A program made the translations under genes and the position numbers. The notes beneath the pieces are model-generated. The model was not told where the DNA came from. It ran no database searches and saw only the letters and a program-made list of their open reading frames with translations. This document shows positions 12,679 to 40,351 of a DNA stretch of 59,033 nt, in pieces; the first letter of the stretch is position 1; each line of letters starts with the position of its first letter. The DNA comes from an uncultured Clostridium sp. Lineage in GTDB: Bacteria > Bacillota > Clostridia > TANB77 > CAG-508. The stretch is from contig CANSOY010000003.1 of NCBI GenBank assembly GCA_947648765.1, forward strand, positions 1 through 59,033, written 5' to 3'.

Positions 12679-13947
12679 TTAAATATATTCAATTGGAATC
12701 ATATAGTCTTTATCACTAAGAGCATGAATATCCTTACATAAGCAAAGGACAATACCATTTGGAGACTTCATTTCGAATTTGCTTACAACGGAAAAGTTTT
12801 TTATCGCATCTTTTCCAGGATTTGCTCCCTTTTTTATTTCGACTGGATAAATAGAGTCTTCATGAAGCACAAGCAAATCAATTTCTCTTCCGTTATTATC
12901 TCGGTAATAATATAGATGCTTTCTAGGATCTCTTTGGTGGTTCGTATAACTCTTTACAATTTCGGAGATTAGATAGGTTTCAAAGATTTGACCGCTATAT
13001 GCGCTTTTTTCTAAAGTCTGACTACTTACATACCCTGTTAGATAACAAGCAAGACCTGTATCCATAAAGTAAATTTTAGGTCTTTTGATAATACGGTTAA
13101 TATTATTATTGCTATGTGGTTGTAATAGAAAAATGAGGTAGGTATTGCTTAAAATTCCAGTCCATTTAAGAACTGTTTCAGAGTCAATACCAACATCTTT
13201 AGCAATATCCGAAGCATTGAATTCTTGTCCTGTCCTAGCAGCAAGACTCGAGATAAATTTCATAAACTTAGGCTCATCTTGAATAGCAATAATCTTACGG
13301 AGGTCACGTTCAACATAAGTACGAAGATATGAGGAGAAAAAAGCCTCTAAACTAACATTTGTATTTTTATAGAGCTCTGGATAACTACCACGGAAGATTC
13401 GGTCAAAAACTTTGTCTAAATATTCATATTTCAAAGGTTCTTTTTGTTTTAGAATTTCAATATCTGGAATAAAAATATCTTCTTTTTTTTGTTGAATTTC
13501 TCGTGTCGTTAGTGGATATAAATCAATAATACCAACTCTGCCAGCTAGAGACTCCGTAATGTTTTCCATTGTTTCGAAAACTTGCGAACCAGTTAAATAG
13601 TATAAAGTTCCGACTTTTGTTCCATCTCCAAACATCTCATTTTTTCGTGCCTCATCAATCGCAATCTTAATATAAGAAAGTAAATTTGGAGCATATTGAA
13701 ATTCGTCAATAATCAAAGGGACGCCGTGTGTGCGTAAGAAACTTTCAGGGTCTTCCAATGCATGAGTTCGTTCTGTTAAATCATCTAAACTAACTTCATG
13801 TAAGACTTGTTTTTTCTTTGTCGCTAAATATTGAAGGACTGTGCTTTTGCCAGACTGTCTAGAGCCAGTAACTAAGATGGAAGGAAAGTTACCATCCATT
13901 TCTTCCAACTTTTTTTCGATTGTTCGGTGAATATATTGTGTTTCCAA
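12679..13947 (-). CDS. AAA-family ATPase with C-terminal DUF4143-like domain (paralogue of 3678-4958)
   Basis: Walker A 'GSRQSGKST', 'IIDEFQY', and a C-terminal 'EIDLL...YPVEIK' restriction-endonuclease-like fold motif. Confidence 0.75.
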   Translation of the reverse strand: METQYIHRTIEKKLEEMDGNFPSILVTGSRQSGKSTVLQYLATKKKQVLHEVSLDDLTERTHALEDPESFLRTHGVPLIIDEFQYAPNLLSYIKIAIDEARKNEMFGDGTKVGTLYYLTGSQVFETMENITESLAGRVGIIDLYPLTTREIQQKKEDIFIPDIEILKQKEPLKYEYLDKVFDRIFRGSYPELYKNTNVSLEAFFSSYLRTYVERDLRKIIAIQDEPKFMKFISSLAARTGQEFNASDIAKDVGIDSETVLKWTGILSNTYLIFLLQPHSNNNINRIIKRPKIYFMDTGLACYLTGYVSSQTLEKSAYSGQIFETYLISEIVKSYTNHQRDPRKHLYYYRDNNGREIDLLVLHEDSIYPVEIKKGANPGKDAIKNFSVVSKFEMKSPNGIVLCLCKDIHALSDKDYMIPIEYI

Positions 13948-14006: not shown

Positions 14007-14104
14007 TTATACTATAAAAAAGAAAAAAACGCAAGAGGAGATTTTGCGGAAACCTTGAAAAAAGCGTGAAAATATAATATAATGCAAACCTAAGGAGGAT
14101 GCCA

Positions 14105-14860
14105 ATGAAATTTGTATCTTGGAATGTAAACGGACTAAGAGCAGTTATGGGAAAAGGCTTTTTGGATTTCTTTGAAAAAACAAACGCAGATTTTTTCTGT
14201 ATCCAAGAAACCAAAATGCAACCAGAACAACTAGAACTCGAACTAAAAGGATATGAGCAATACTGGAATAGTGCAGAAAAGAAAGGCTATTCGGGAACAG
14301 CTATATTCACCAAACATAAGCCAATCAGTGTAACTTATGGAATTGGCAAAGAAGAACACGACAAAGAAGGTAGAGTAATTACCTTAGAATATGAAAAATT
14401 TTATTTAGTCAACAGTTATACCCCAAATTCGAAACGAGAACTAGAAAGACTAGACTACCGTATGATATGGGAAGATGAAATCCGAGACTATTTAAGCAAA
14501 CTGGACCAAACCAAACCAGTCATCTATTGTGGGGACTTGAATGTAGCCCATCAAGAAATTGATCTAAAAAATCCAAAAACCAATACACACAGTGCAGGAT
14601 TTACGCAAGAAGAACGAGAAAAAATGACACAACTATTAGGGACAGGATTTATCGATACTTTCCGCTATTTCTATCCAGACCAAGAAAACGCATATACGTG
14701 GTGGTCCTATATGTTCCATGCACGTGAAAAAAATGTGGGTTGGAGAATTGACTATTTTATTACCTCGGAACGACTAAAAAAGAACTTGAAAGATAGCAAA
14801 ATCTATGCAGACATCTATGGAAGCGACCATTGTCCAATCGAGATTGAAGTAGAATTTTAA
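14105..14860 (+). CDS. xth: exodeoxyribonuclease III
   Basis: 'MKFVSWNVNGLRA', 'FCIQETK', 'CGDLNVAH', 'GSDHCPI' motifs. Confidence 0.93.
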   Translation: MKFVSWNVNGLRAVMGKGFLDFFEKTNADFFCIQETKMQPEQLELELKGYEQYWNSAEKKGYSGTAIFTKHKPISVTYGIGKEEHDKEGRVITLEYEKFYLVNSYTPNSKRELERLDYRMIWEDEIRDYLSKLDQTKPVIYCGDLNVAHQEIDLKNPKTNTHSAGFTQEEREKMTQLLGTGFIDTFRYFYPDQENAYTWWSYMFHAREKNVGWRIDYFITSERLKKNLKDSKIYADIYGSDHCPIEIEVEF

Positions 14861-14869
14861 GGAGGAACC

Positions 14870-16003
14870 ATGAAAGATAAAAAAGAAAAATGGCTAAAAT
14901 ATTTTAGCCTAGGAGTAGCCTTGATTTTTGTATATCAAATATGCAATAACCTAGAAGGCGTAATGGAATGGTTAAAAGGATTTACAGTTGTATTAGCACC
15001 ATTTCTATGGGGGATTTTAATCGCCTATCTATTCTATATCCCATGCCGAGGATTAGAGAAAAAATTGAAAAAAACCAAAAAGAATGGACTACTTAACCGA
15101 AAAGCAAGAGGAATTAGTGTACTAGCAGTGTATTTAATCGCCTTGTTAATCTTAATTTTGGTATTTCAATATATTATCCCAATTCTAGCACAAAGCATTG
15201 GCGACTTAATTAACAACTTCCAATCCTATTACACAGCAAGTATTGAAAAACTAGACCAAAAAGAGCCAGACGAATTTTTAAGCAATCCAATTGTACAAGA
15301 AGTAATAAAACGACTCAAAGAAGTAGACTGGAGCCAATTTACGACTTTTGAAAATATTGTGATTTATGCTAAAGGTGCAGTCAATGCAGTAACCGGTATC
15401 TTTTCTTCCTTTGTAGCAATCATTGTATCCGTGTATATTTTGCTTGGAAGAGGAGAAATTGTTGCCTATTTATGCCGACTTGGAAAATCTATTTTCAAAC
15501 CAAAAACATATAACCTGCTATATAGTTATTTTGAAAAAGGAAATGAAATCTTTTTCAAATATGTAGGAAGCCAATTTTTAGATGCAATTTTAGTGGGATC
15601 CATTGCCTCCGTAGCATTATCCATTTTAGGTGTAAAATATGCAGTGCTACTTGGCGTTATGATTGGTCTATCCAATATGATACCATACATAGGAGCTATT
15701 GTAGGAATTGGAATTGCGGCGATTATTACACTAATTACAGGAGGACTAGGGCAAGCGATTGCTATGCTTGTTACCATTATCATTTTGCAACAACTTGACG
15801 CTAATATTATCAATCCAAAGATTGTTGGAGATTCTCTAAAAATTAGTCCATTACTTGTCATCTTTGCTGTAACAGTCATTGGAGCATACTTTGGTATTAT
15901 TGGAATGTTCTTATCTGTTCCAATTATAGCACTTGCAAAACTAATGTTAGAACACTTTATGGCAGCAAGAGCAGAGCAAAAACAAGAAAAAATAGAAGAA
16001 TAA
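14870..16003 (+). CDS. AI-2E family transporter (PerM/YtvI-like)
   Basis: 377 aa, about 8 TM helices, conserved 'IPYIGAIVG' and 'INPKIVGDSL' segments. Confidence 0.85.
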   Translation: MKDKKEKWLKYFSLGVALIFVYQICNNLEGVMEWLKGFTVVLAPFLWGILIAYLFYIPCRGLEKKLKKTKKNGLLNRKARGISVLAVYLIALLILILVFQYIIPILAQSIGDLINNFQSYYTASIEKLDQKEPDEFLSNPIVQEVIKRLKEVDWSQFTTFENIVIYAKGAVNAVTGIFSSFVAIIVSVYILLGRGEIVAYLCRLGKSIFKPKTYNLLYSYFEKGNEIFFKYVGSQFLDAILVGSIASVALSILGVKYAVLLGVMIGLSNMIPYIGAIVGIGIAAIITLITGGLGQAIAMLVTIIILQQLDANIINPKIVGDSLKISPLLVIFAVTVIGAYFGIIGMFLSVPIIALAKLMLEHFMAARAEQKQEKIEE

Positions 16004-16191
16004 AATATATTCCAATAATTGTAATTTTATTTGACAAAGCAAAAGAAATATGACAAGATAAAAACAGAAAAAGGGTTGAACATCGCTAATATTCAAACCA
16101 TAATAATGAGAAAGTATGTGTAGCTGTGAATACACATACTTTTTTTATGAAAAAAATAGAGCAGGCTGTGACCTACTCTACCGATTATGTA

Positions 16192-16323
16192 TTAGTCTTG
16201 GGATTGTTTTTGCTTTTCAACTTGTTGACTTTGTTGTAATTGCTGAAGTCGAAGCATAAAGTTTTCCTCTTTTTCTGCAATAAGCCTGTCAACTAAGTTC
16301 GGTATAATATCACTGGTGGTCAA
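16192..16323 (-). CDS. small hypothetical protein, 43 aa, Gln-rich C-terminus
   Basis: TTG start 7 nt after GGAAAGGAGGG. Own TTGTAA-17-TATCAT promoter. Sequence 'MTTSDIIPNLVDRLIAEKEENFMLRLQQLQQSQQVEKQKQSQD'. Below the ORF-track size cut-off. Confidence 0.35.
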   Translation of the reverse strand: MTTSDIIPNLVDRLIAEKEENFMLRLQQLQQSQQVEKQKQSQD

Positions 16324-16516
16324 AGCAAACCCTCCTTTCCGCCCTTTTGAAAGGACTAGCCTTTGACGCGTCAGGATAGTATCTATGATACAATATCTAC
16401 CAATATTTTACAATTACTATTTTCGTATCTCAAAAAGTTCTTAAAAAGAAAGAAGAACCTTGTCGAAAGTGCCAAGAAAAATGTTTCCAAAAACTGATTT
16501 TTTCTTGCAAAAATCA

Positions 16517-16546
16517 TTGACAAGCCAGTGTATAATGATATATAAT
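16517..16546 (+). promoter_or_regulatory. sigma-A-type promoter upstream of rpoB
   Basis: TTGACA (16517-16522), 18-nt spacer, TATAAT (16541-16546). Confidence 0.55.
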
Positions 16547-16656
16547 AATTAAGCATATTTTAGAAAAAAGAGATAACTTAACTACAAAGTCAATGAAAAG
16601 GACGGTAAATGTGGTTAAAAAACGCGTGATGAAAAATAAATTAAATCAAAGAACAA

Positions 16657-16708
16657 AAGCAAAAAAGTAGTTGGTAAAAAAGAGAAGTTTACCAACCTGC
16701 TTTTTTGT
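16657..16708 (+). terminator. intrinsic terminator/attenuator inside the rpoB leader
   Basis: Stem GCAAAAAAGTAGTTGGTAAA / TTTACCAACCTGCTTTTTTG. Core stem GTTGGTAAA/TTTACCAAC, then CTGCTTTTTT, about 175 nt before the rpoB start. Confidence 0.6.
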
Positions 16709-16881
16709 TGCTATTTTGTGTTCATTATGTAAATGATAAAGAAGAGGAATTGGTTCTTAATCTTCTTACGGAAATTCGGTTTCAAAGCAGAAAAATCGAA
16801 ATTTTTGTAACAAGATAGGAAAAACAAGAAGGACTTCTTTACATCCATATAGATCTTTTTTCTGCTTAAATTTTTATAGGG

Positions 16882-19800
16882 GTGATTGATTTGTTAAAAG
16901 ACGTCAAATACGAGAAATGTACTCGTAAAACTTTTGCAAAAATTGGTGATTCAATCGAAATGCCAAATCTAATCAAAGTACAGAAGGACTCTTATGATTG
17001 GTTTGTAGAAGAAGGGCTTGGAGAAGTATTAAAAGATATTTCCCCAATCATAGACTATTCTGGAAATTTAGTTCTTGAATTTATCGACTACTACATGGAA
17101 GAAAAAACAAAGTACACACAAGAAGAAGCCAAAGAAAGAGATGCAACATACTCCACAAGACTTCATGTGAAAGTACGCTTAATTAACCGTGAAACAGGGG
17201 AAATTAAGGAGCAAGAAATCTACTTGGGTGACTTCCCGCTTATGACCGAAAGTGGAACTTTCATTATCAATGGAGCAGAAAGAGTTGTTGTCAGCCAATT
17301 AGTACGTTCACCAGGATGCTACTATGCTTCTGACTATGACAAAACCGGAAAGAAAATCTATACCTCAACCGTAATGCCAATTCGTGGAGCATGGATTGAG
17401 TACGAAACCGATGCCAATGATGTATTTTATGCACGTGTTGACCGTACCAGAAAAATTCCAGTAACGACATTACTTCGTGCTATTGGAATTACGACGGATG
17501 AGCAAATGATGGAACTATTTGGAGAAGAAGCCAAACTAACCGCAACCATTCAAAAAGATCCAATCAAAACACAAGATGATGCTTTAATTGAAATCTATAA
17601 AAAATTAAGACCAGGAGAACTCCCAACCGTAGATGCTGCTAAAAATTTATTTGACGGTTTATTCTTCGATGAAAGAAGATATGATCTAGCAAAAGTTGGT
17701 CGTTACAAATTTAACCAAAAGCTAAGCCTTGCCACACGTATCACAGGCTGTATTTCCTATGCGGATATTATACATCCAGAAACAGGCGAAATTTTGGTAG
17801 AAAAAGGAGCTGTTATTTCTGAAGAAGTAGCAGAAGAAATCCAAAACACAGGAATTAACATTGTCGATGTAGAAATCGCAGAAAAACCAGTTCGTGTGAT
17901 TGGAAACGGAACGGTAAACATCTATAAATTCCTAGCAGATGTAGACCTAAAAGACTTACATATTAAAGAATACGTAAATTATGAAGTATTAAAATCCATT
18001 ATTGATACCACGGATAAAAAAGACTTAAAGAAAGTATTAAAAGAAAGAGTACAAGATCTAGTACCAAAGCACATTACTACCGAAGATATGATTGCATCGA
18101 TCAGTTATGTGTTCAACCTAGACCATGGACTTGGCAATATTGACGATATTGACCACTTAGGAAACAGACGTATCCGTTGTGTTGGTGAATTATTACAAAA
18201 CCAATTCCGTATTGGTTTAACCAGACTTGAAAGAGTAGTACGTGAGAGAATGACCATTCAAGACTTAGACATTGTAACACCACAAACGCTTATCAATACG
18301 AAACCAATTACATCAGCAATCCGTGAATTCTTTGGAAGTTCCCAACTTTCTCAATTCATGGACCAAACGAACCCGTTATCTGAATTAACGCATAAAAGAA
18401 GAATATCTGCTTTAGGACCAGGAGGATTATCTCGTGAAAGAGCTGGTTTCGAAGTTCGAGATATCCACTATACCCACTATGGTAGACTATGCCCAGTTGA
18501 GTCCCCAGAAGGACCAAACATTGGACTTATCTCTGCACTATCTTCTTTTGCAACCATTAACGAATATGGATTTATTGAAACACCATACCGCAAAGTAGAT
18601 AAAGAAACAGGCAAAGTAACCGATATTATTGAATATATGCCAGCAGACTTAGAAGATAAATACATCATTGCCCAAGCATCTGAACCATTAGACAAAGATG
18701 GGAAATTTGTTAACCATAGAATTAAAGTAAGACATAAAGAGGAAATCACGGAAGTAGACCGTGAACAAGTAGACTATGTAGATGTATCGCCAAAACAACT
18801 TGTATCCGTTGCAGCAGCTATGATACCTTTCCTAGAGCACGATGACGTAAAACGTTCTTTAATGGGATCCAACATGCAACGTCAAGCTGTACCACTTCTA
18901 ATTCCAGAATCTCCACTTGTTGGAACAGGAATTGAATACCGTGCAGCTAAGGACTCCGGCATTACCATTACTGCTAACAATGAAGGTGTGGTAGAAAAAG
19001 TAGCCGCAGACGAAGTTCGTGTACGTAACAAAAAAGGAGAAGTAGATGTTTACCACCTAAGAAAATTCAAAAGAACCAATGGTGGAACTTGTATCAATCA
19101 AAGACCAGTTGTATTAGAAGGCGAAAAAATAAAAGTAGGGGACATCATTGCAGATGGACCATCTACCAAAAATGGAGAAATGGCACTTGGACGCAACGTA
19201 CTTGTAGCCTATACCACTTGGGAGGGATACAATTACGAGGATGCTGTTTTAATCAGTGAGAGACTTGTCAAAGAAGATGTCTATACCTCCATCCATATCG
19301 AAGAATATGACTGTGAATGTAGAGATACCAAACTTGGACCAGAAGAAATCACAAGAGACATCCCAAATGTTGGTGATGACGGATTAAAAGACCTAGACGA
19401 AAACGGTATTGTCCGCATTGGTGCAGAAGTACGCCCAGGCGATATCTTAGTTGGAAAAGTAACTCCAAAAGGAGAAACCGAACTAACGGCAGAGGAAAGA
19501 TTACTTCGTGCCATCTTTGGAGAAAAAGCAAGAGAAGTAAGAGATACCTCTCTTCGTGTACCACATGGAGAAGCGGGAACGATTGTAGATGTTAAAATCT
19601 TTACCAGAGACAATTCAGACGAATTAGGACCTGGTGTGAACCAAATTATCCGTTGCTATATTGCAACCAAGAGAAAAATTTCAGTTGGAGATAAAATGTC
19701 TGGTAGACATGGTAACAAAGGTGTTATCTCTCGAATTCTACCAGAAGAAGATATGCCATTTATGCCAGATGGAACTCCAGTGGATATTGTATTAAACCCA

Positions 19801-20598
19801 CTTGGTGTACCTTCTCGTATGAACCTAGGGCAAGTACTCGAAGTACACTTAGGAATGGCAGCACGTGCACTTGGTTGGCATGTAGCAACACCAGTATTTG
19901 ACGGTGCAAAAGCATCTGAAATTGAAGAATTACTAGAAAAAGCTGGTATTTCAAAAGACGGAAAAACTACACTATATGACGGAAGAACCGGAGATCCATT
20001 TGATAAGCCAATCACGGTTGGAGTTATGTATATGTTAAAACTACACCACTTAGTAGACGACAAAATCCATGCTCGTTCAACTGGACCATACTCTTTAGTA
20101 ACGCAACAACCACTTGGAGGTAAAGCACAATTTGGTGGACAACGTTTTGGAGAAATGGAAGTATGGGCACTCGAAGCTTATGGTGCAGCTTATACCTTAC
20201 AAGAAATGCTAACCATTAAATCTGACGATGTTGTAGGAAGAGTAAAAACCTATGAAGCAATCGTAAAAGGTGAGAATGTACCAGAACCTGGTGTACCAGA
20301 AAGCTTCAAGGTACTTATCAAAGAACTACAATCATTAGGATTAGACATTAGATTATATTCCGAAGACAATAAAGAACTAGAACTCAAAGAAAACATTGAC
20401 GACGGAATTGACTTCAACATGGAAAATGAGAAAAAATTACAAGAAGAAGCAGTTTTAGACGAAGAAGAACTTGCAGCAGAAGGATATATGGAAGAGTCTG
20501 AATTAGAGGACGAGGAGGACGATACCATTTTCCCAGACCTAGATGACGAATTGGACATTGAGGACCTAGGTCAAGACGATTTATTAGACGAAGAATAA
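16882..20598 (+). CDS. rpoB: DNA-directed RNA polymerase subunit beta
   Basis: 1238 aa with unmistakable RpoB sequence ('[25 protein letters not shown]', 'SRHGNKGV', '[18 protein letters not shown]'). Acidic C-terminal tail. The start could instead be TTG at 16891. Confidence 0.99.
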
Positions 20599-20714
20599 AC
20601 TGAATAAAGGAGTATTTTGGCAGGGGCAGATGACAACAAAAGTATGCTCGAGCAGTGGTAAATTCTGCTTCTCTGCAAATGCCTTACCAAATTATCTTTA
20701 AGGGGGCTAAATTC

Positions 20715-23700
20715 GTGGACGAATTAGAAATCTTTGATAAAATCAAGATTGGACTCGCATCCGATGAAAAAATTAGAGAATGGTCAAAGGGAGAAGTTAA
20801 AAAACCAGAAACCATTAACTACCGTACATTAAAACCAGAAAAAGATGGATTATTCTGTGAGAGAATTTTTGGACCAACCAAAGATTGGGAATGTCATTGT
20901 GGTAAATATAAAAGAGTACGTTACAAAGGAATTGTTTGTGACCGTTGTGGAGTAGAAGTAACCAAAGCAAAAGTGAGAAGAGAAAGAATGGGTCATATCG
21001 AACTTGCTGCACCAGTTGCACACATTTGGTATTTCAAAGGAATCCCTTCTCGTATTGCTTTAATGTTAGACATCTCACCAAGAAGTTTGGAAAAAGTTAT
21101 TTACTTTGCATCTTACATTGTTGTAGATAAAGGAACAACAACACTTGCTAAAGCACAAGTATTAACCGAAAAGGAATACCATGAAGCAGTTGAAAAATTC
21201 GGAAAAGGATCTTTCAAAGCAGAAATGGGTGCAGAAGCAATCCGTAAACTATTAGAAGAGATTGACTTAGATAAATTAGCAACAAGTCTAAAGAAAGAAT
21301 TAGACCATGCAAGCGAGCAAAAGAAAGCAAAATTGGTAAAACGTTTAGACACGGTTGAGTCTTTCAAACTTTCAGATAACCGCCCAGAATGGATGGTTAT
21401 GAATGTTATTCCAGTTATCCCACCAGAAATTCGACCAATGGTACAATTAGATGGTGGAAGGTTTGCAACTTCGGACTTAAACGACCTTTATCGTCGTGTA
21501 ATTAACCGTAACAACCGTCTAAAAAGACTATTAGAATTAGGAGCACCAGAGATTATTGTACGTAACGAAAAAAGAATGTTACAAGAGTCTGTTGATGCCC
21601 TAATCGATAACGGAAGACGTGGAAGACCAGTAACAGGAGCTGGAAACCGTGCCTTAAAATCCTTGTCAGATATGTTAAAAGGAAAACAAGGACGTTTCCG
21701 TCAAAACTTACTTGGAAAAAGAGTTGACTACTCTGGTCGTTCGGTTATTGTTGTAGGACCAGAACTAAAAATCTATCAATGTGGACTTCCAAAAGAAATG
21801 GCAGTTGAATTATTCAAACCATTTGTTATGAAGGAACTTGTTGGTAGAGGAATCGCACATAACATTAAAAACGCAAAAAGAATGGTAGAAAGATTACGCC
21901 CAGAAGTATGGGATATCCTAGAAGACGTTATCCAAGACCATCCAGTTATGCTAAACCGTGCACCAACACTACATAGACTTGGTATTCAAGCATTTGAGCC
22001 AGTTCTAGTAGAAGGAAGAGCCATCAAACTACATCCATTAGTTTGTACAGCATTTAACGCAGACTTCGATGGAGACCAAATGGCAATTCACGTACCACTA
22101 TCTCCAGAAGCACAAGCAGAAGCAAGATTTTTAATGCTATCTGCAAACAACCTATTAAAACCACAAGATGGTAAGCCAGTAACGGTACCAACCCAAGATA
22201 TGATTTTAGGAAGTTACTACCTAACCATGGATGTTCCAAATGAACAGGGAGACGGAAATTACTTTGCTTCTCCAGAAGAAGCAATTATTGCTTACGAAAA
22301 CCACTCTTTGGGATTACATGCAAAAATTAAAGTACGTATTACCAAAGAACTAGAAAATGGTGATATCCGTCAAAAAACCATTGAAACAACCGTTGGTAGA
22401 ATTATCTACAATAGCGGAATTCCACAAGATTTAGGCTTTGTAGACCGTACCGACCCAGAACATGAATTAGATTATGAAGTAAACTTTGCCATTACGAAAA
22501 AGAATATTGGAAAAATCATTGGAAAATGTATCAATATTCATGGTTTAAGCAAAACAGCAGAATTACTAGACTATATCAAAGCAACTGGTTTCAAATATTC
22601 AACAACTGGTGGTATTACAGTATCCGTAGATGATGTAAAAGTACCAGAAGAAAAGAAAACTATCTTAGCAAAAGCAGACGAAGAAGTAGCCAATGTCTTA
22701 AAACAATACAAAAGAGGTTTAATTACTGAAAACGAGAGATATAACTCCGTTATTAAAATTTGGGAAAAAGCAACAGATGATGTAACCGCTAAAATGAAGG
22801 AAAACTTTGAAAAAGAAGACCTAAACCCAGTATTTATGATGAGCCAATCTGGAGCCAGAGGTAACATTAACCAGTTAAGACAAATTGCAGGTATGCGTGG
22901 AATGATGGCATCTACAACTGGTAAAACAGTTGAAATTCCAATCAAGTCCTGTTTCCGTGAGGGACTTGACCCACTTGAATACTTTATCTCTGCCCATGGT
23001 GCTAGAAAAGGACTTGCCGATACAGCACTTCGTACAGCAGACTCTGGTTACCTAACCAGAAGACTTGTTGATGTATCGCAAGACATTATTGTAAGAGAAC
23101 ATGACTGTGGAACCACAGAAGGTGTTGAATTAACAGATATTATGGATGGAAACCAAACCATCGAAAAATTATCTGAGAGACTACTTGGAAGATATCCACT
23201 ACACGATATTATCCATCCAGAAACCAAGGAAGTGCTTGCTACAACGGATACCTTAATTACCGAAGCAATCGCAGACAAGATTGTTGCAGCCGGAATTAAG
23301 AAAGTAGAAGTTCGTTCTGTTTATGGCTGTCATACCAAACATGGTGTATGTAGCAAATGTTATGGAATGGCACTTGCAGGACGTGAAGAAGCAAACATTG
23401 GTGAAGCTGTTGGTATTATTGCCGCACAATCCATTGGTGAGCCAGGTACACAGCTTACCATGAGAACCATCCACTCTGGTGGTGTTGCTGGTGTAGCAGA
23501 TATTACACAAGGTCTTCCTCGTGTAGAAGAGTTATTTGAAGCGAGAAAACCAAAGGGTCTTGCTATCATTTCGGAAATTGATGGTAAAGTAAAAATTTCA
23601 GATAACAAAAACAGAAAAGAAATTACCGTAACATCAAAAGATAATAGCAAGAGCTATCTAATCCCATTTGGTGCAAAGATTGCCGTAAAAGAAGACCAAG

Positions 23701-24299
23701 AAGTAGAAGCAGGCGACCCATTAACCGAGGGTTCCATCAATCCAAATGAAATTCTTATCATTAAAGGGGCAAAAGGTGTATTTGAATACCTTGTACAAGA
23801 GGTACAAAAAGTATATCGTAACCAAGGTGTTGATATTAACGATAAACACATTGAGGTTATTGCAAGACAAATGCTTAAGAAAGTTCGTGTGGAAGACAAT
23901 GGAGATACCGACCTATTCCCAGGTTCTTTAATCGATGTTTACGAACTAGAAGTAAAGAACAAAGAAATGGAAGCAGAGGGCAAACGCCCAGCAACTGCAA
24001 AACAAGTGCTACTTGGTATTACCAAAGCATCACTTGCAACAGACAGTTTCTTATCTGCTGCATCTTTCCAAGAAACCACAAGAGTATTAACAGAAGCAGC
24101 AATCAAAGGTAAAGTAGACGAGTTAGTAGGATTAAAAGAAAATGTTATCATTGGTAAGTTAATCCCAGCAGGAACTGGAGTAAACCCATACAAGAATACA
24201 CGCATTAGCACAGACTATGACGAAGTAGCAACCGAAAATGTGGAAGAAGCGGAAAATCCAGTAGAAGAAACCGAAACACCAGAAGGTGTAGAAGAATAA
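20715..24299 (+). CDS. rpoC: DNA-directed RNA polymerase subunit beta'
   Basis: GTG at 20715 after AAGGGGG. Zn-finger '[23 protein letters not shown]' and catalytic '[10 protein letters not shown]'. The ORF-track start at 20655 is an upstream extension. Confidence 0.99.
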
Positions 24300-24307
24300 A
24301 AAGGAAA

Positions 24308-24335
24308 GAAGGAGTAAAAATACTCCTTCTTTTTA
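24308..24335 (+). terminator. rho-independent terminator of rpoC
   Basis: AGAAGGAGTA-AAA-TACTCCTTCT plus T-run. Confidence 0.8.
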
Positions 24336-24631
24336 TATGTAGAAACAGGAATTTTTTTACAAACAACAATAGTGCTTAAGAATTCAAGCAATTTGACAAA
24401 AAAATAAATTAGCAGTAAAATCCTTGAAGAAGGAGGTTTTGTAAAAAGCAGAAAAACCTAAAATTCTGCGTGCATGGGGTAATCTAATTAAACTTCATGC
24501 TCATGGTATTTTTCTTTGGTACGATTGAAACTTAGAAAATACTGTGAAAAATTTTGGTATTAGGAGGGATAATCTAACCAAAAAGTAAATTAACTAACCA
24601 CACATTTAACGAATTAAAAAGGAGTATCAAA

Positions 24632-27600
24632 ATGAAAACCAATCTTAGCGAGCGGATGATAAGCCTTATTCTGGCTATCGTTTTGCTGGTCGGTGTTTTA
24701 CCGACAGCTGCCTTCGCAACCGAAGAAGAGGAAGCAACGACGACTACCACTGAAAACGTGGAAATGGTACCTGTGGGCGACGACGAAGAAACTGTAACGG
24801 ATGAAGTTACAGAGGACACCGAACTGCCTGCCGAAGAGGTTATCGAAACCACAACCGAACCTGTAGAAGAAGAGGCGGAAAATGTAACTACTCCCGCTGA
24901 ACAAGATGCAGTAAATACCATTGTAACTACTGCTGAAGCGGACGTGGTAAATGTAACCAACGGAAAAACCTTCACTATGCAAGGTAGGTATCTTGATTTG
25001 CTGCACAATCATAGTGAATATGGTGTGCAGGACTACCTCATTAGCGAATGGCAGGATGAAATTCGCATCTATTTTATGGAAGGCGACACCAGCAGTATAA
25101 CGTTCAAGGTGTGGGACAGCGGAAGCGACAGCCTTGCCAATAGCTTTGGTGTACGTGCTACCACGAACGTCTGGTTTATGAGTTATATCTATGATAAAAA
25201 CACTCTAACCCAGATTCGGTCGTCAAGACAGCTGATGCCCACAACGGACATGCGCATCTATAGTTACTCTTTTGCAGCGAGCTTTGACATCTATAAGACG
25301 AGTGCTTTGGATGGAAATTTCAAAGAGTTTTTCTATGATGCCAACAATACTCGGCCCGGCGTTCCTGATACGACTATTCCAGAGGATGCTGTAACAGTAA
25401 CCAATGGAAAGACCTTCACTATGCAAGGCAAATATCTCAAACTATTGCAAAGTCATAACTACTATGGCACGAGAGATTACATTGCGAGTGAATGGCAGGA
25501 CGAGATTAGGTTCTATTTCTTTGAAGACATAAGCAATGTAGAGTTTAGTGTCTGGGATAGCGGAAACGACGGCCTTGTCAGTAGCTTTGGCGCGCGGCCT
25601 TCGCGAAATGTATGGGCTATAGAGTATGTGTATGATAAAGATACTCTGATTCAAAAACGTTCGTCGAGACAGTTGTTTTCTACGGGCGATGCACGTACCT
25701 ACAGCTATTTTTTCGTTTCAAGTTTTAACATCTATGCAAATACCAATTATGAGGATGCTAACTTGTTTTTCGACCGCAGTGGCACTTTGCCCGGAATCGT
25801 GCCTGGGAATCCACCAGAAGATTTATGGAATTTCACAAGTGGAACTACCTTTTCGGCAACGGGTACTCTTTTGTGGCTACTTCAAAACCACAGTGAATAT
25901 GGTGCGGAAAATTACATTGCGTATGAGGGAGATACGGAATTCAGAATCCTATTTTTCCATAATGCAAGTAATGTGAAGTTTACGGTATGTAACAATTCCG
26001 TTACTTCTTTTGGAATTAGCCCATCACAAGATGTACCATTTACAGAGTATGCCTACAATAAGGATACCCTGCGGCTGAAACGGGCAAGAGAAAAGACCTT
26101 TACCGTAGAAAATGACTATGTCTTTAAGAACCCATTTACAGCAAGTATCGTTATTTATGCAGATGGTTCTGATGGCAAAAAATTCTTTGACCCTAATCAG
26201 AACTTGTCGGAGAACCCAACCCTGCATCCTTCCGAGGATATTTCCTTCACGACTAATCGCAAGACATTTACCCTGCCGGGAGCATATGCTTGGTTGTTAT
26301 TAAACCAAGAAGAGTATGGGAAGAAAGACTATTTTGCTTACCAAGATGGTAATAGTTTCGTAATTTCTTTCTTTGATAACATAAGCGGGGTAAAGTTTAC
26401 CAGAAGGAACAACGGCCACTATGATTCTTTTGGCATGAAAGTTTCTGCTCAGGTAAAGTTTGTAGAGTATACTTACGACACAAATACTTTTATGCTAAAA
26501 AGTCTTACGAACAGAACGATAGACGCAGGTGGCGAAATCACTTGTGCAGAACGCAATTTCATAGCAAGTTTCGATATTCGTATGGCCGATGCCGATGACC
26601 AGTATTTCTATATGGTTAACGGTGAACAATTACCTACTCTTCCTCCGAAATATGAAAAAAAAGAGTGGAAAGAGGAGAATGCACAAAAGTTCCATATGGA
26701 TGAAGTGTACTGTAAGAAGATTAGGGAATGTCCCGAATATAAGCAAGGACAGCGTTATCTTGCTTATCTGTGGTTAAACGACTTCGTGATTTGGTTTTTC
26801 GATGACCCTAATGTACAATTTAGTGTATGGGACAGAAGTGGAAACAAACTTAGAAACTCCTTTGGAGTAAATCCGTCTGTTGATACACAGTTTAAGGCAT
26901 ATGTGTTCAGTACAACGACATTAAACCTGAAATCTGAAGCTGTTAATCCCCTAGGGAAAAACAGCGGATACATACTTGTCTACGACTTTGTATCCAACAT
27001 CGACATCTACACGGATGAAAGCTACCTGAATTACTTTTATAAGGGAAATGGCGATTATGTGAAGAATACGACGGATGGCAGAACTTTTGCCATCCCGAAT
27101 GCTGCATATGAGGAAGTCAAGGACCTTATAAGTGATTTGCGCGGAGGCGATGAAAATAGTGAAAATTATATAGCCTTTGCGTCAGGCGACGAATTCAAAG
27201 TATGGTTCCTTAACGACAATGACGTACGATTTTGTGTAAAGGAGAGTGATACGAGTACCTTTAAGTTGCAGCCCGCTTCTAACACACGAGCTACGGAATA
27301 TGTGTTTGATAGAACTACTCTGACACAGAAAGAAGAAGGACTTCAAATTGTTGCATTGCAAAAGTCCGGAGAGTATCCGTTCAACAATAATTTTTTCGCA
27401 AACTTTAATATCTATTCGGACGATACCTACTCGGAGTATTTCTATAACGCAGCACATAGCAATGTTGAGTTTACCCGAACGTTCCAACCGCTCAAACCAA
27501 AGGAAGCTGAAGCGTTTTTGAGGTTCCTTACAGATGTTGGCTGGCTCGTTAACGTCAAGAAGGAGATGCCTGAATATTACAATCTCCTCATTGGCGAAAT

Positions 27601-28243
27601 TAAAGACCCGAAAGAAGAATTAAGGACAAGAGCAGAGTTTCTATTTTTTGCCGGACATTGTATAAGTCTTCAGCAGGCACAGTGGAAGTATCAAATGAAT
27701 TGGGGTACTAATAATTTGCAAACTTGGTTAAATAATCGAGACAACTTACACGAGTTTTTGCTCATTGATCCCTATAGTCCACAAAGTCTCGCAGACGAAA
27801 ATAATTCCGGAAATGAAGAATTAACCGAAGCAGAGAAAAAAGCAAAGATTGAAGAAAACATTAAAGGTATCATTATAGCTTCACTTCAACGCTTGGAGGA
27901 CTTGCTTAAACTAAAGTATAATCAAGATAAAGTCAAAGAAATACTTGCCGGTGTCGAAGATCCGACTAATGCACTGGACTTGATGAGTGTTGGTTTTGCA
28001 TTAGTAAACGGGTTAGGTGTAGCAAGAGCAGAGAAAAATATGAGTGATATCAACCTCTTAGCTGCACACAGGAGAATTCTAGGAGCAATTGAGGGTGGCG
28101 ATGAGTTGGCAATCGAAAGAGCAAGGGCAGAATACGCTCTTGTTGAAACCTATAAAGCCACGTTCTCAAATCCTGACAAAGCAAAAAAATACGCTGAATA
28201 CCTATTTTCAATTGAGCGGAGTATGTTTAATTATCCCTTTTAA
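24632..28243 (+). CDS. secreted protein: signal peptide, acidic T/E linker, six ~140-aa repeats of an unrecognised domain, ~260-aa helical C-terminal domain. G+C-enriched, probably acquired.
   Basis: Signal peptide 'LILAIVLLVGVLPTAAFA|TEE'. Repeats start near 24944, 25388, 25823, 26240, 26670 and 27061 ('NGKTFTMQG(R/K)YL.LL...EYG..DYIA...F.I.FF......F.VWD.....SFG.....V...YVYDK.TL......'). Uses CGG, CTG, GCC and CCC codons that are rare in flanking genes. Confidence 0.8.
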   Translation: MKTNLSERMISLILAIVLLVGVLPTAAFATEEEEATTTTTENVEMVPVGDDEETVTDEVTEDTELPAEEVIETTTEPVEEEAENVTTPAEQDAVNTIVTTAEADVVNVTNGKTFTMQGRYLDLLHNHSEYGVQDYLISEWQDEIRIYFMEGDTSSITFKVWDSGSDSLANSFGVRATTNVWFMSYIYDKNTLTQIRSSRQLMPTTDMRIYSYSFAASFDIYKTSALDGNFKEFFYDANNTRPGVPDTTIPEDAVTVTNGKTFTMQGKYLKLLQSHNYYGTRDYIASEWQDEIRFYFFEDISNVEFSVWDSGNDGLVSSFGARPSRNVWAIEYVYDKDTLIQKRSSRQLFSTGDARTYSYFFVSSFNIYANTNYEDANLFFDRSGTLPGIVPGNPPEDLWNFTSGTTFSATGTLLWLLQNHSEYGAENYIAYEGDTEFRILFFHNASNVKFTVCNNSVTSFGISPSQDVPFTEYAYNKDTLRLKRAREKTFTVENDYVFKNPFTASIVIYADGSDGKKFFDPNQNLSENPTLHPSEDISFTTNRKTFTLPGAYAWLLLNQEEYGKKDYFAYQDGNSFVISFFDNISGVKFTRRNNGHYDSFGMKVSAQVKFVEYTYDTNTFMLKSLTNRTIDAGGEITCAERNFIASFDIRMADADDQYFYMVNGEQLPTLPPKYEKKEWKEENAQKFHMDEVYCKKIRECPEYKQGQRYLAYLWLNDFVIWFFDDPNVQFSVWDRSGNKLRNSFGVNPSVDTQFKAYVFSTTTLNLKSEAVNPLGKNSGYILVYDFVSNIDIYTDESYLNYFYKGNGDYVKNTTDGRTFAIPNAAYEEVKDLISDLRGGDENSENYIAFASGDEFKVWFLNDNDVRFCVKESDTSTFKLQPASNTRATEYVFDRTTLTQKEEGLQIVALQKSGEYPFNNNFFANFNIYSDDTYSEYFYNAAHSNVEFTRTFQPLKPKEAEAFLRFLTDVGWLVNVKKEMPEYYNLLIGEIKDPKEELRTRAEFLFFAGHCISLQQAQWKYQMNWGTNNLQTWLNNRDNLHEFLLIDPYSPQSLADENNSGNEELTEAEKKAKIEENIKGIIIASLQRLEDLLKLKYNQDKVKEILAGVEDPTNALDLMSVGFALVNGLGVARAEKNMSDINLLAAHRRILGAIEGGDELAIERARAEYALVETYKATFSNPDKAKKYAEYLFSIERSMFNYPF

Positions 28244-28251
28244 TACCTAAT

Positions 28252-28287
28252 GGGCGGGGGTGCATTTTAACAAATGCGCCCCCGCCC
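28252..28287. terminator. GC-rich bidirectional terminator between convergent genes
   Basis: GGGCGGGGGTGCATT-TTAACAA-AATGCGCCCCCGCCC. Confidence 0.8.
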
Positions 28288-28311
28288 TTATATTTTATTA
28301 TTGTACTTAAT

Positions 28312-29067
28312 TTATAATTTGGGTTCTGCCAAATCGATATCTTTCACAGTGCCGAAAGATAAGTTTTTTATTGTGGAGTCTGGTTCAGAAGGAGTAGCAT
28401 TTGAGTCTATGCGCTCCCTACCAACATAAAAGCCGGTCGATTTTTCTATCCAATATGCGTAATATTTTTTTGTATCATAACGATATGCTTTTACAATAAT
28501 ACAACTTCTTCCGTCTAAAATATCGTCTTTTACATAGGCAAAATCTGGCAGGTGTCTATCTTGGTGTTCAATTAGTTCGACTAATTCTTCTTGAAATAGA
28601 CTCTTACTTCCTATGGCATAGTTTGCAGTATTCTTAATTTTATCTACATGATTAAATCTATTGGTTATATCTTTATCAAAATTTACTATATCAGTAGTTA
28701 ATCTTTCAGCATTTTCAATAGACGCGATGGTAGAAGATAGACCATAACTTTCACGTTTCAATTTTGAACTTTTGTAATATTGTTTATAAAGGAGACTACT
28801 CGAATGAATTTCATAATATACATTGTCTTTTTCTCGTATTGTTTCTTTCCCTTTTAGAATTAACTTCTCAATATCTTCACTTGAATAACCAGAAGAACTG
28901 GAAGGAGTGGAGAAATCAGAGGAATTAGAAACATTGCTGAGACTAGAAATTGGTGCTTCTGGTGTTGGTGTGGGAGAATTTGCTGAAATATTTCCATTCA
29001 TTTTGAAATATAAGATAATGGCTAATACTGCAATCAATGCAAGTAGAGCAAGCACAAATTTTTTCAT
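28312..29067 (-). CDS. hypothetical membrane-anchored extracytoplasmic protein
   Basis: 251 aa. N-terminal TM 'FVLALLALIAVLAIILYF', an S/P/T-rich linker, then a globular domain. Low G+C like the host. Confidence 0.55.
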   Translation of the reverse strand: MKKFVLALLALIAVLAIILYFKMNGNISANSPTPTPEAPISSLSNVSNSSDFSTPSSSSGYSSEDIEKLILKGKETIREKDNVYYEIHSSSLLYKQYYKSSKLKRESYGLSSTIASIENAERLTTDIVNFDKDITNRFNHVDKIKNTANYAIGSKSLFQEELVELIEHQDRHLPDFAYVKDDILDGRSCIIVKAYRYDTKKYYAYWIEKSTGFYVGRERIDSNATPSEPDSTIKNLSFGTVKDIDLAEPKL

Positions 29068-29199
29068 AATTCTTCCCCCTTTTTTTACATATAAAAAGTA
29101 TATCTTAGCCCAATGGGATTGTCAAGTTATCGAAAGCCTGATTGGTGTTTACTATCTTTTCACATTTATGATACAATAGAGAAAAAAGTGGAGGAAAGT

Positions 29200-30412: not shown

Positions 30413-30665
30413 GTTGGATATATGGTAAGCATGCCAAAATCTTACATCTCTCAGGTTTCCCCTGTTTGCCATCGGCGTGTGGTCGGCACAATATTTTACC
30501 ACCACATATATCTGTTAGAAAAGTATAGCATAAATTGGGAAAAAACACAAAAATTTGAAAAACGTACCAAATTGGTGTATAATAGAAGGTGCTAAGCACG
30601 TTGTAGCAAGGCTTCGAGAAAGTCCAAAGAAGCCAAAATGTAGCACACGAGAAAGAGAAGGAGAA

Positions 30666-30983
30666 ATGCCTGTGGACACCATTGCAATGTTATATCTCTT
30701 TTTGAGAAAAGCAATCACTACCCTCTGTTTCTTTTATGCAATCTTAACCGTGTTAGAAATCCTTGCAGGGAGAAAGAGGGACAAGAAAAGTTGTACCATA
30801 GCAATCTTTTTATGCGACGCCATCTTTGGGATGGGGCTTGCCCTACTTTTCCTTTGCCAATATTTCCAAATGCCAATCGATATGAGTATATTTCTCTTGC
30901 TGATTGCTTCAGCGATGGGGGCACTCATGAACTATGAGGCATACAAGGTTATAAAGCAAGTGGAAGACGACCAGAAAAAGTAA
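30666..30983 (+). CDS. small hypothetical membrane protein (3 TM helices)
   Basis: ATG at 30666 after GAAGGAG. 105 aa. Preceded by a TTGAAA-17-TATAAT promoter (about 30555-30584) and an ~80-nt leader. Confidence 0.45.
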   Translation: MPVDTIAMLYLFLRKAITTLCFFYAILTVLEILAGRKRDKKSCTIAIFLCDAIFGMGLALLFLCQYFQMPIDMSIFLLLIASAMGALMNYEAYKVIKQVEDDQKK

Positions 30984-35381: not shown

Positions 35382-35493
35382 GATGAAAAATCGTCATAAA
35401 AAGTGGCAAGGAAAAGTATTTTTGATATTGTACAAAACCAATGGATATGCTACAATAAAATTGTGATAAAATGTAAAATAGGGAGAGATTTCG

Positions 35494-38400
35494 ATGAAAA
35501 AAACACACAAACGAGGAAAAATCTTTTTAATTAGTTTTTGTATGTTATTATTAGCCGGTATTGGGCTTTATTTTGTTAGCACAAAAGCCCGTTACAAAGA
35601 AATACCGCCATATAATCTATTTACCTATCAAACCGGCAGTAGTGAAATTGCAACGGGAGAAGAAACCATAGTAGCCACAGAAAAGCAGACTGCCGAGCCA
35701 ATGGCAGAGGCGACCAGTGAACCAGAAGCAGAAGAAGAAACTGACACGCCAAGTGAAGAGAAAGAATTTATTTACTTATCCGATATTAACTATCTAAGAG
35801 CAACTGTTGGTTGGAGTACTGTCTTTTTTGATAAAAACAATGATAACACACCACTTAACCTAAAAATCAATGGTTCCAACTTAGAAGTCAAAAAAGGAAT
35901 TTGGGCGCATGCTACCTCTACGGTTGATTATGATATTAGCGAATATAGTGAGGATTACACACACTTTATTACCTACTATGGCATTAGTACCAAGGTAGCC
36001 AACGCAGGAGATGGTGTAAAATTCTATATCTATACCTCCAATGACGGAGAGCACTGGGATTTACGTACCGAAGAAAATCCACAACCAATGAAAAGTGCAG
36101 ACAATGCAGTTTACTGCAAAATCCCACTCAATGGAGCCAAATATCTTAGACTATATGCCCATCAAAACGGAACCACTGCACAAGATAACTCGGTATGGGG
36201 CGATTGTAAACTAGTAAAAAGCACCTATCAAGACAATATCATGATGACCGTAGAAGAATTTGACGAAATCCTAAGACCAACCTATCAAAGAGGGCAAATT
36301 CGTGAAGACGCTGTCCTTCCTCTATTACAAAGAGAATTTATTAAAAATGTAGGACAATACCAATTACGTTGTTTTGTAGACGAGAAACCAGAGCACAAAG
36401 AAACCTTGGAATGGTTTTTACGTGACGAAAAAGCACTACGCTTATGGACAATGGGTGGTCCACCAAATGGAAGCTATTTGCAATCCTTACGTGTATTAAA
36501 CAATCTCTACCATGCACATGGAGAAGACCTAGAAGCAACAGGAGAAACTGCAAACGGAGTACCATATAAAGACTTATACCTAAGAATGATGTTATCGTTA
36601 TCCTTATCCCATTCCGTTAATGTAAGTCTATGGGCAGGAAATAATCCACCATCTAATCCAGTTACAAGATATGAAATCTATAAACAAATGCACTTAGATG
36701 GACTACTTGCCAATAGCCGAATGTTTGAAAACTTTACTGTCGAAGAAATGAGAATTGTACTGTTTACGAATATTGATGACGAAGAAATTATGTGGTTACA
36801 TGACTACTCCAAAAAATTCTCCAGTACAGTAGACCGTTTCAATCCATTCAAATACATGGACTATGTCATGCCACAATATTATAATTACTATAGACCACAA
36901 TACTATAGTGCGGAAAACTACGATAAATGGAACCAAAAATATAACCTAGCCAAATATAACATTACTTATCAATCAGGTGTTCCAAAACTATGGATTGTTT
37001 TTGAAGAAGGAGCAGTTTGTGGAGGACTTTCCAAAACAGCCGCTAACCTCTATGGCGTATGGGGTTACCCAGCCAAAGTTTGTGGGCAACCAGGACACGC
37101 AGCATATATCTACCTAGCAGATGCAGGTGGTGGAAGAAATACTTGGCGTCTATCGTATAACGTTGTAGGAGGTGCTTGGGCAAACACTGGTAGTGGAGGA
37201 CGTATTCCAAACGGTTGGGGACATCGTTATGCAACCAATGGAGGAGGCATCCAAAACGCATCCTACCACTTCCTAGCACAAGATGCACAAAACGAATACG
37301 ACAAATATGAAAAATCAGAATTGATCTTATTACAAGAAAATATGTATCAAGATGACCGTGCAAAACTAGAAAATATTTACCGAGATGCACTAGAAGAAGA
37401 AATCATTAACCTTGACGCATGGATTGGTTTAGTGGATTTATGTATTACAGACCCATCTGCAACAGAAGAGGATGTACTAGAACTAGCCGAAGAAATTGCG
37501 GATGTTATGAAATACCACCCATTACCAATGTACGATTTAACCAGAAGACTAGAAACCAAACTAACCACACCACAAAATCGTAGCCGTTTGATGTTATTAC
37601 AAGAAAACACATTGAAAAATGCGACCCATGCACCAGCATCTGCCACCCTTTATGCTTCTGAAATTAAAGTGGTAGCAGAACAACTATTAGGCATTAAAAA
37701 TCCAAGCCTTGCCAATTTCTCTTTTGATGGAGCAAATGCTGGAAAAATTATGCTATCCAGCCAATTAAGAAGTGCCCAAGTAAATTGGAGTTACAGCCTA
37801 GATGGAGGAAGTTCTTGGACGGATTGCTATGAGCATGATGCCATCTTGACACCAGAAGAAATCGCAAGTATTACAGCAGAGCAAGACATTAAAATCCACA
37901 TTTCTGGATTACCAATGACAGAAGCCAATATTTACACCATCGATATTACCAAAAGAGCTTTCCCAGGCGGTGTTACTATGAATGACGAAGAAGACCGCTT
38001 GTATGGGGCAACCAATGAAATGGAATGGACATTAGACCAAAGTAAAGGTTGGAATTCCTTTGATGGTAGCAACCCAATTTTTGAAGGAGAAAAAGTGGTA
38101 TACGTCCGTATTGTAGGAACTGGAACACAATTACCAAGTAATCCAGTCGTCTTCACTTTCCATAAAAACAATTCAGATGATACAAAATGGTATATCAAAC
38201 CAAAATTCCTACAAATACACGAAGTAAATGGAACATGGTCAGGAGATCCAAACAATCTTTTAGATGGAAACTTAAATACCTATTGGCGTTCTACCAAAGG
38301 TCAATTACCAGCCCATGTATCAGTTAAACTAGACCAACCAAGATATATTTCTAAACTAGAATTTGCACCAGATAAAAACGCGAAATATTTGAATTTTATC

Positions 38401-40344: not shown

Positions 40345-40351
40345 AACGAAA

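Follow-up and report, generated by a model that had tools for sequence, protein, structure and literature searches.

We describe here a two-gene locus in a 59,033-nucleotide (nt) stretch of DNA (the window, positions 1 to 59,033 of contig CANSOY010000003.1, assembly GCA_947648765.1) from an uncultured Clostridium sp. The first gene is an open reading frame (ORF) at 24632-28243 on the plus strand, whose product we call "X," and the second is a convergent ORF at 28312-29067 on the minus strand, whose product of 251 amino acids (aa) we call the "partner." X is laid out as a signal peptide, an acidic linker, six repeats of ~140 aa (R1 to R6), and a helical C-terminal domain of ~260 aa. We tentatively read the locus, at somewhat under an even chance, as a horizontally exchangeable surface-variation cassette (~24431-29125), in which X would be abundant, antigenically variable, and docked to the partner. 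An earlier model-made reading of the letters alone (the sequence-only reading) had drawn attention to X; it missed the co-inherited convergent partner, the mobile-element copies and the mosaic allele, the high in vivo expression, and the reuse of the helical domain in SLH-type proteins.

The evidence begins with a comparison of the window and two conspecific loci, L001 and L015. Between these strains RpoC is 99.6-99.8% identical, Dgt 97-99.5%, the uracil permease 99.8-100%, and Upp 100%; for X the figure is 46-57% and for the partner 50-62%. The flank is ~96% identical in nt to that of L001 up to position 24950. When the window is set against L001, synonymous divergence (dS) reaches ~1-2 for X and 0.45 for the partner gene, as against 0.097 for rpoC and 0.012 for dgt, and the ratio of nonsynonymous to synonymous divergence (dN/dS) lies at 0.04-0.5 throughout. 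The alleles are old and functional and sit in a young backbone, rather than being the outcome of fast local evolution.

The window allele of X is itself a mosaic, with R1 and R2 resembling a mobile-element copy (P0003) and the remainder a syntenic allele (P0002). From ~24431 to 25736, which takes in the leader, signal peptide, linker, R1, and R2, the window and the mobile-element copy at L005 share 85.6% nt identity. R1 (24944-25387; this and all other parts of X are on the plus strand) is 95% identical in aa to R1 of P0003, with a dN/dS of 0.04 against L005, and R2 (25388-25822) is 83% identical to its counterpart in P0003. R3 to R6 and the C-terminal domain are closest to P0002; the nearest unit to R3 (25823-26239) is R4 of P0002 (60%), and the nearest to R4 (26240-26665) is its R5 (50%). 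Overall, the homology of window and L005 spans ~24431, near the transcription start, to ~29125; the transcribed units are common to both and the X promoter is not.

The surroundings of several relatives carry genes of mobile elements. At L005, in a host of 31% GC, the pair comes after genes for an N6-methyltransferase, DUF3846, SSB, PcfJ, and ArdC-N and before helix-turn-helix (HTH) regulators. At L010, HTH genes come next, then a large serine recombinase, and beyond it the housekeeping genes ctsR-mcsA-mcsB-clpC; at L013 X comes after a Mob_Pre relaxase, an HTH gene, a sigma-70 region-4 protein, and RadC-DUF3846. An IS256-type transposase adjoins L104 upstream. The 59 kb of the window, which represents the chromosomal locus, hold no transfer or recombinase genes, save unrelated ATPases.

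The partner gene is the other half of the cassette. Its product has an N-terminal signal-anchor transmembrane segment, a Ser/Thr/Pro linker, and an ectodomain of ~180 aa with an invariant C...WIEK.TG core; the N-terminal segment is the single hydrophobic helix and is not followed by a signal peptidase site. The gene has its own promoter on the minus strand (29097-29125; TTGACA-17-TATACT, 11/12). Wherever downstream DNA was recovered, that is, in the rpoC-locus strains and at L005, L010, L012, and L104, a partner-family gene lies convergently downstream of the X-family gene, and at L104 it is a one-repeat homologue, P0011, that is paired in this way. The divergence of the partner follows that of the C-terminal domain of X (r 0.85). 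The family is small (18 proteins) and has no sequence match in Pfam or the PDB, the weak Pfam matches of 20 members having also been surveyed. A LolA-like or DUF4367 label, suggested by the motif W.(D/E)K.TG ... F..P..Y, was dropped because none of the 20 members matched a LolA, LolB, or DUF4367 profile and no PDB sequence matched either.

X is transcribed as a unit of its own. The rpoC terminator hairpin (24305-24332, plus strand) forms the left edge of the conserved backbone, and it is followed on the same strand by a sigma-70-type promoter (24393-24421; TTGACA-17-TAAAAT, 11/12) and a structured 5' leader of ~200 nt (24429-24631), which has a Shine-Dalgarno-like AAGGAGG at its 5' end, three hairpins, and the true ribosome-binding site AAAGGAG. 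Between X and the partner stands a GC-rich terminator hairpin (28252-28287, assigned to neither strand) with a 16-bp stem that includes 11 GC pairs; the promoter and the terminator foreseen by the sequence-only reading are thus both present. The leader is kept from ~24431 in the mobile-element copy at L005 and in L011 and L012, despite diverged coding regions, and its fold has a z-score of -2.15. No Rfam family matches it at the gathering score or at E <= 10, and a riboswitch (e.g., for c-di-GMP) was rejected on that ground. The leader may be akin to those that stabilise the mRNAs of strongly expressed genes in Gram-positive bacteria, such as leaders of the STAB-SD type and of S-layer mRNAs.

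X sequences are present in mouse-gut and faecal metagenomes, and also in metatranscriptomes. In four mouse-gut metatranscriptomes the RNA contigs start at 24440-24451 and end at 28221-28253, and there is no RNA coverage from the end of rpoC to 24440 in the four runs. The depth of these contigs, which is a rough measure of expression, is 8-20 for X, as against 0-3.5 for the partner and, for rpoC, 0-10 overall and 0-5 in three runs out of four. Few transcripts from the first 31 kb of the window are as abundant as that of X in these four metatranscriptomes; just two other genes match its RNA depth. These encode a 231-aa ORF without a Pfam family (53-748, plus strand) and a G5-3D (YabE/Rpf-like) wall protein (9427-10425, plus strand).

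Export is indicated by the sequence of X itself. The ORF is intact, starts with ATG, and encodes 1203 aa, exactly as the sequence-only reading had described it. Read directly, the N-terminus is a typical Sec signal peptide, MKTNLSERMISLILAIVLLVGVLPTAAFA|TEEE (aa 1-29, 24632-24718), cut after AFA, with a single hydrophobic segment and without a lipobox; this is also the sole transmembrane-like segment of X (Kyte-Doolittle 2.62; next best 1.34). It is followed by a low-complexity linker rich in Thr, Glu, Val, and Pro (aa 30-104, 24719-24943), which has no aromatic residues and whose isoelectric point (pI) of 4.05 bears out the acidic character that had been ascribed to it along with the AFA|TEE cleavage site. 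The mature protein has a mass of 135 kDa, a pI of 4.6, and a Cys content of 0.5%.

As the sequence-only reading had also said, no anchor, dockerin, or sortase signal is found, and Pfam, hydropathy, and motif scans agree on this point. A lipobox and a C-terminal LPXTG motif were looked for in X and neither was found, nor was a second hydrophobic segment. A match to an NCBIfam LPXTG subfamily was insignificant (E 0.2) and confined to the signal peptide, and a Pfam scan of the full protein at E <= 0.01 returned no dockerin, SLH, cohesin, or other family.

The six repeats are real, and the starts given for them earlier were right to within a few nt when checked by BLASTP between units and by a hidden Markov model (HMM). 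The units are 130-148 aa long and mutually similar (BLASTP E 1e-6 to 6e-57), with 56% identity between R1 and R2 and 23-39% in the remaining pairs. R5 (26666-27058) is a conserved penultimate unit that carries a Cys pair, C694 and C700, and has a dN/dS of 0.07; a unit of this type with its Cys pair recurs at 63-87% identity in 6/7 homologues, where it forms a single cluster, and it is the most conserved part of X. The last unit, R6 (27059-27460), has an insertion after its first helix. An HMM of the six units detects 7, 5, 6, 6, 4, and 5 units in six full-length homologues. In a 34-unit alignment, with which the previously quoted consensus agrees, the invariant or near-invariant columns are nearly all Phe, Tyr, or Ile, which means a fixed hydrophobic core with variable surfaces. 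Aromatic residues make up 17% of the repeats of X.

The repeat had been called unrecognised, and this assessment now rests on a confident structural model as well. R2 was modelled with AlphaFold2, using the 34-unit alignment as input, and gave 11 strands and one helix at a predicted local distance difference test score (pLDDT) of 88.6 and a predicted TM-score (pTM) of 0.82. A Foldseek search of this model against 350,542 PDB chains and BFVD found nothing at E <= 0.001, the best TM-score being ~0.30. The full protein has no Pfam match (E <= 0.01), no meaningful NCBIfam match, and no PDB sequence match; neither the 34 repeats nor 17 C-terminal domains, scanned singly at E <= 5, gave a recurrent family, and profiles of the repeat and of the C-terminal domain found no match among PDB sequences.

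Specific candidates fared no better. For repeats of the Big_1-Big_13, FN3, or PKD kind or an Ig-like fold, Big_8 appeared in only 2/34 units (E 0.036), and TM-scores to Ig-like chains were 0.17-0.24. For cohesin (PF00963, a nine-stranded jelly-roll) there was no Pfam match and no PDB fold at E <= 0.001, and a cohesin or scaffoldin identity was rejected since Pfam and Foldseek were both negative. A match of the full protein to phrog_12964 (aa 95-162, E 2.6e-6) was judged spurious; the 34 isolated repeats gave no PHROG match at E <= 0.01, and tblastn of R1 and of a single-repeat protein, P0032, against 50,697 phage records found nothing.

The C-terminal domain (27461-28243; ~215-260 aa) has conserved motifs at both ends, the N-terminal one being F.PL.P.EA..FL.F...LP.YY.LL.G, and a variable middle. 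It had been described as helical and of no recognised family. The AlphaFold model is indeed all-helical, with 11 helices and a pLDDT of 77.8 (>90 in the termini and core, low in the variable middle), and neither Foldseek nor a profile search of PDB sequences yielded a match. All C-termini align as a single family (HMM E 1e-20 to 1e-105). The domain stands alone in P0012 and P0030, follows one repeat in P0011, and follows one to three copies of a beta-rich "type-2" repeat of ~235 aa (HTVQN.G.TY.LP...) in P0014, P0016, P0017, and P0018 (loci L102 and L103). Homology between the two kinds of repeat was rejected (hhalign probability 1.9%). As the type-2 proteins have this domain too, it would seem to be what stays constant, with repeats that can apparently be exchanged. 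It also lies within large proteins that have aBig_2, Flg_new_2, Big_2, GLUG, BspA-type leucine-rich repeat (LRR_5), and SLH domains, the SLH-type proteins being P0022, P0025, P0027, and P0029 (hmmsearch E 1e-20 to 6.5e-12 against the family profile). Its occurrence inside SLH, Big_2, and LRR surface proteins marks it as an independent module of extracellular surface proteins.

The position of the cassette is unusual. X directly follows rpoC and is itself followed by dgt, the uracil permease gene, and upp, not by rpsL-rpsG-fusA (the str operon). The composition of X differs from that of its neighbors, as the sequence-only reading had claimed; this is clear for GC at third codon positions (GC3), which is 0.42 against 0.25-0.27 in rpoB and rpoC, and real but modest for bulk GC (41.3% vs 37.9% in rpoC). 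Homologues of X likewise exceed their hosts in GC3, and the codon usage is foreign in every host examined. Translational selection was rejected as the cause because G-ending codons (AAG, GAG) account for the surplus and C-ending NNY codons do not. A homologue is present at this place in every conspecific strain seen, but these are not host-like copies of the same gene, given their low identity, their dS, and their non-host codons.

The cassette is bracketed by a 21-nt inverted repeat with a left arm at 24329-24349 and a right arm at 29078-29098 (neither assigned a strand), the latter within the leader of the partner. Its arms are complementary at 19/21 positions (90%), and each of the four rpoC-locus strains has the repeat on either side of the cassette; 0/300 flank shuffles reached 19/21. 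The inverted repeat is missing from the mobile-element copies. An empty rpoC-dgt site was sought in 80 metagenome loci with Dgt relatives and not found. In only two of the 80, both conspecific, does rpoC adjoin dgt, and because this synteny is confined to the species no pre-insertion site can be defined. Of the earlier claim of an unusual insertion, the unusual, foreign-looking position stands, and an insertion in the strict sense is a possibility. We also note that rpoB-rpoC (14099-24299) is separate from both rplKAJL and rpsL-rpsG-fusA, with an Exo_endo_phos gene and an AI-2E transporter gene before rpoB. Being detached on both sides, it shows an unusual gene order not only downstream.

The X family is rare. 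A word-indexed search of 5.8 billion proteins returned 7 proteins, including the cluster of the query itself, and when 1.84 billion cluster representatives were scanned in full with hmmsearch, 28 were related at E <= 0.001. Among the 185,579 GTDB species representatives, relatives lie on just two contigs. None was found in IMG/VR (2.9 million viral contigs), PLSDB (72,556 plasmid records), or phage GenBank records. One X-family relative (31% identity) is encoded at L014 (CAVFFR010000059.1), a 2.9-kb contig of 26% GC binned to a Bacteroidaceae metagenome-assembled genome; this is probably a mis-binned contig from a Firmicutes genome or a mobile element.

How might such a cassette work? X would be exported by Sec and lose its signal peptide, and its six beta-rich modules would form an extracellular rod, like beads on a string, each module having aromatic core residues that do not vary and a surface that changes fast. 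The helical C-terminal domain may serve as a foot that holds X to the envelope non-covalently, by docking to the ectodomain of the partner, which would be a membrane protein of type II, always co-inherited with X, whose Ser/Thr/Pro stalk spans the wall. A large output of X would come from its consensus promoter and its long, structured, probably mRNA-stabilising leader. Recombination in rpoC and dgt, the conserved flanks, could exchange one allele for another, with copies on integrative, conjugative, or mobilisable elements as the supply, and phages, host antibody, or both would exert frequency-dependent selection on the exposed structure. Export without a covalent anchor, modules with a fixed core and a variable surface, reuse of the helical domain in SLH-type proteins, the co-inherited partner, ancient mosaic alleles in a clonal backbone, and very high in vivo expression together fit an exposed, abundant surface component under such selection. 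A fuller version, which we regard as possible and distinctly more doubtful, is an undescribed Gram-positive surface system in which a beta module of new fold (one to seven copies), a helical foot, and a membrane receptor build an abundant non-covalent coat or fibril, whose alleles and modules are traded by integrative conjugative elements (ICEs) and integrative mobilisable elements (IMEs), changing recognition by phages and antibodies.

Several points weigh against the surface-variation cassette. Profile and motif scans of X show that SLH, CWB2, LysM, and LPXTG, all means of binding the wall, are absent. The helical domain sits internally in proteins that are already SLH-anchored and need not be an anchor, and its co-variation with the partner is explicable by physical linkage alone. 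More remote relatives of the partner are encoded where no X-like gene lies nearby. The RNA of the partner is far below that of X, which makes it a poor fit to a 1:1 anchor, and contig depth is itself a poor gauge of expression. Finally, the location of X at the envelope is a prediction, as is any role for it as an adhesin or coat.

Other accounts of the same observations should be considered. A strictly co-inherited pair of a large secreted and a small membrane protein, both extremely divergent between strains of near-identical backbone and held as ancient alleles, carried on mobile elements, and with the divergence of the small protein tracking the C-terminus of the large one, is what one might expect if X were a secreted polymorphic toxin or large bacteriocin and the partner its cognate membrane-anchored immunity protein, acting in strain competition and in the upkeep of carrier elements. 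We nevertheless judge this unlikely, as the C-termini form one homologous family and not the unrelated, interchangeable modules of polymorphic toxins, and a domain found mid-protein in SLH-anchored proteins is atypical for a toxin tip. Variation also extends across the repeats, and R5, not the N-terminus, is the most conserved part. The co-varying small gene is always adjacent, yet it is convergent with its own promoter, is not co-transcribed, and has much lower RNA. No toxin, immunity, or defence profile matched in Pfam or NCBIfam (PADLOC was not searched), and Foldseek matches of the helical domain to alpha-pore-forming toxins were weak and insignificant (TM-score <= 0.18).

The foreign codon usage in every host examined, and the fact that chromosomal and element copies have the leader and transcribed unit, not the promoter, in common, would also suit a mating adhesin (X) with a surface- or entry-exclusion factor (the partner) from Gram-positive integrative conjugative or mobilisable elements, the copy after rpoC being a domesticated remnant. 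Three or four independent relatives do edge regions with a relaxase, PcfJ, ArdC-N, SSB, DUF3846, or a serine recombinase; the window, however, has no transfer or recombinase genes apart from the unrelated ATPases, X is expressed in the gut constitutively and at a high level, similarity of the PrgB/PrgA type and an LPXTG motif are both absent, and the plasmid records and viral contigs searched contain nothing of the kind. We hold this to be quite unlikely. Least probable, in our opinion, is that X is a soluble secreted protein without envelope attachment that binds glycans or other polymers for nutrient capture or as matrix, its repeats being a new carbohydrate-binding module (CBM). The aromatic content of the repeats and the want of an anchor motif would agree with this, and a dockerin-bearing NPCBM/F5-F8-type-C protein encoded in the same genome region makes extracellular glycan handling part of the biology of the organism. 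The conserved aromatics, however, act as a buried core, invariant in 34 units while the surface varies; no CBM, lectin, or cohesin match was obtained by sequence or fold; and the co-inherited partner and the ancient allelic diversity would be left unexplained.

Other features of the window may be recorded briefly. Two paralogous AAA_14/DUF4143 ATPase genes lie at 3615-4958 (plus strand) and 12679-13947 (minus strand), and a WG_beta_rep repeat protein is encoded at 5090-6613. Between dgt and a 142-aa ORF there is an Rfam skipping-rope RNA (30417-30512, minus strand; 45.5 bits, gathering score 36.7), a motif reported to associate with particular neighboring protein genes (Weinberg et al. 2017, PMC5737381). 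It is polymorphic between strains, L001 being without 78 nt (30447-30524) inside the motif. The 142-aa ORF near it (30555-30983, plus strand) has no Pfam family and weak holin-like PHROG and NCBIfam matches; identity to L001, in which the ORF called is shorter, is only 75%, and in L015 it is uncalled, which makes it another variable spot.

Further along, ~5 kb of the window (35382-40349), flanked by similar terminator hairpins, are missing from L001 and L015. This segment contains a 1616-aa ORF (35494-40344, plus strand) with NPCBM, F5/8 type C, DUF4073, and Big_3_2 domains and a near-threshold C-terminal type I dockerin, so a cohesin-dockerin system is implied in the organism. The APH-like kinase gene (40423-41553, plus strand) is 100% identical in L001 and 90% in L015, with neighbors at 100%, and recombination may have affected this segment as well.

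Most gut Clostridia have yet to be cultured, and little has been learned about their surfaces. In this mouse-gut species, the behavior of X is that of a classical target of frequency-dependent selection, and its two domains are without relatives in sequence or fold. If X is the main exposed structure of these cells, phage receptor, IgA target, and adhesin would be candidate roles for it, and it would be a natural strain marker. There would then be a new repeat fold and a new principle of envelope attachment beside SLH, CWB2, LPXTG, and LysM, and mobile elements would be seen to carry surface-variation cassettes that re-paint their hosts. Other Firmicutes of the gut and rumen have SLH-anchored proteins with the helical domain, so establishing its role would annotate a wider set of proteins.

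It remains to compare the locus with known systems. LPXTG/sortase-anchored (MSCRAMM-like) adhesins differ in having a C-terminal motif with a hydrophobic segment and a basic tail after it; X was searched in vain for the motif and for a second hydrophobic segment. Sec-dependent polymorphic toxins of Firmicutes, for example, WapA/WapI of Bacillus subtilis, likewise combine a large repeat protein bearing a signal peptide with a small adjacent partner in strain-specific pairs; in X, by contrast, the C-terminus belongs to a single conserved family with internal members in other surface proteins, the partner is convergent, and there are no YD/RHS repeats or known toxin domain. Cellulosomal and amylosomal scaffoldins are also secreted, with tandem beta modules of ~140 aa and Pro-rich linkers, and the host has at least one dockerin-bearing protein, but X has no Pfam cohesin or PDB fold at E <= 0.001 (best TM-score 0.30). 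The multidomain SLH-anchored surface proteins (P0022, P0025, P0027, and P0029) share the helical domain of X, and all are extracellular. They lack the ~140-aa repeat, have recognised anchors and Ig-like or LRR domains, and carry the helical domain internally, with a beta domain after it.

The nearest analogue is the S-layer cassette of Clostridioides difficile (slpA and its flanking genes). There, too, the gene of an abundant secreted surface protein exists in many deeply divergent allelic cassettes, which replace one another by recombination while the backbone stays conserved, and the protein is acidic and Cys-poor, with its own strong promoter and terminator; X shows these S-layer traits along with a high RNA depth and a signal peptide. 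In the C. difficile cassette types, variation is greatest in the exposed part, to which phages bind as their receptor (PMC10100898). The differences are equally plain. X has neither CWB2 (PF04122) nor SLH (PF00395), as there is no Pfam family at E <= 0.01 and no recurrent weak match in the 17 C-terminal domains or 34 repeats, and there is no similarity in sequence or fold. Its family is built from 4-7 tandem modules of ~140 aa and a helical domain, is paired with a membrane-anchored partner, and has relatives that ride conjugative or mobilisable elements. The kind of locus, a variable surface-protein cassette, is already known; both domains of X are without relatives in sequence or fold and the partner without relatives in sequence, the family is very narrow, and the link with ICEs and IMEs is unusual.

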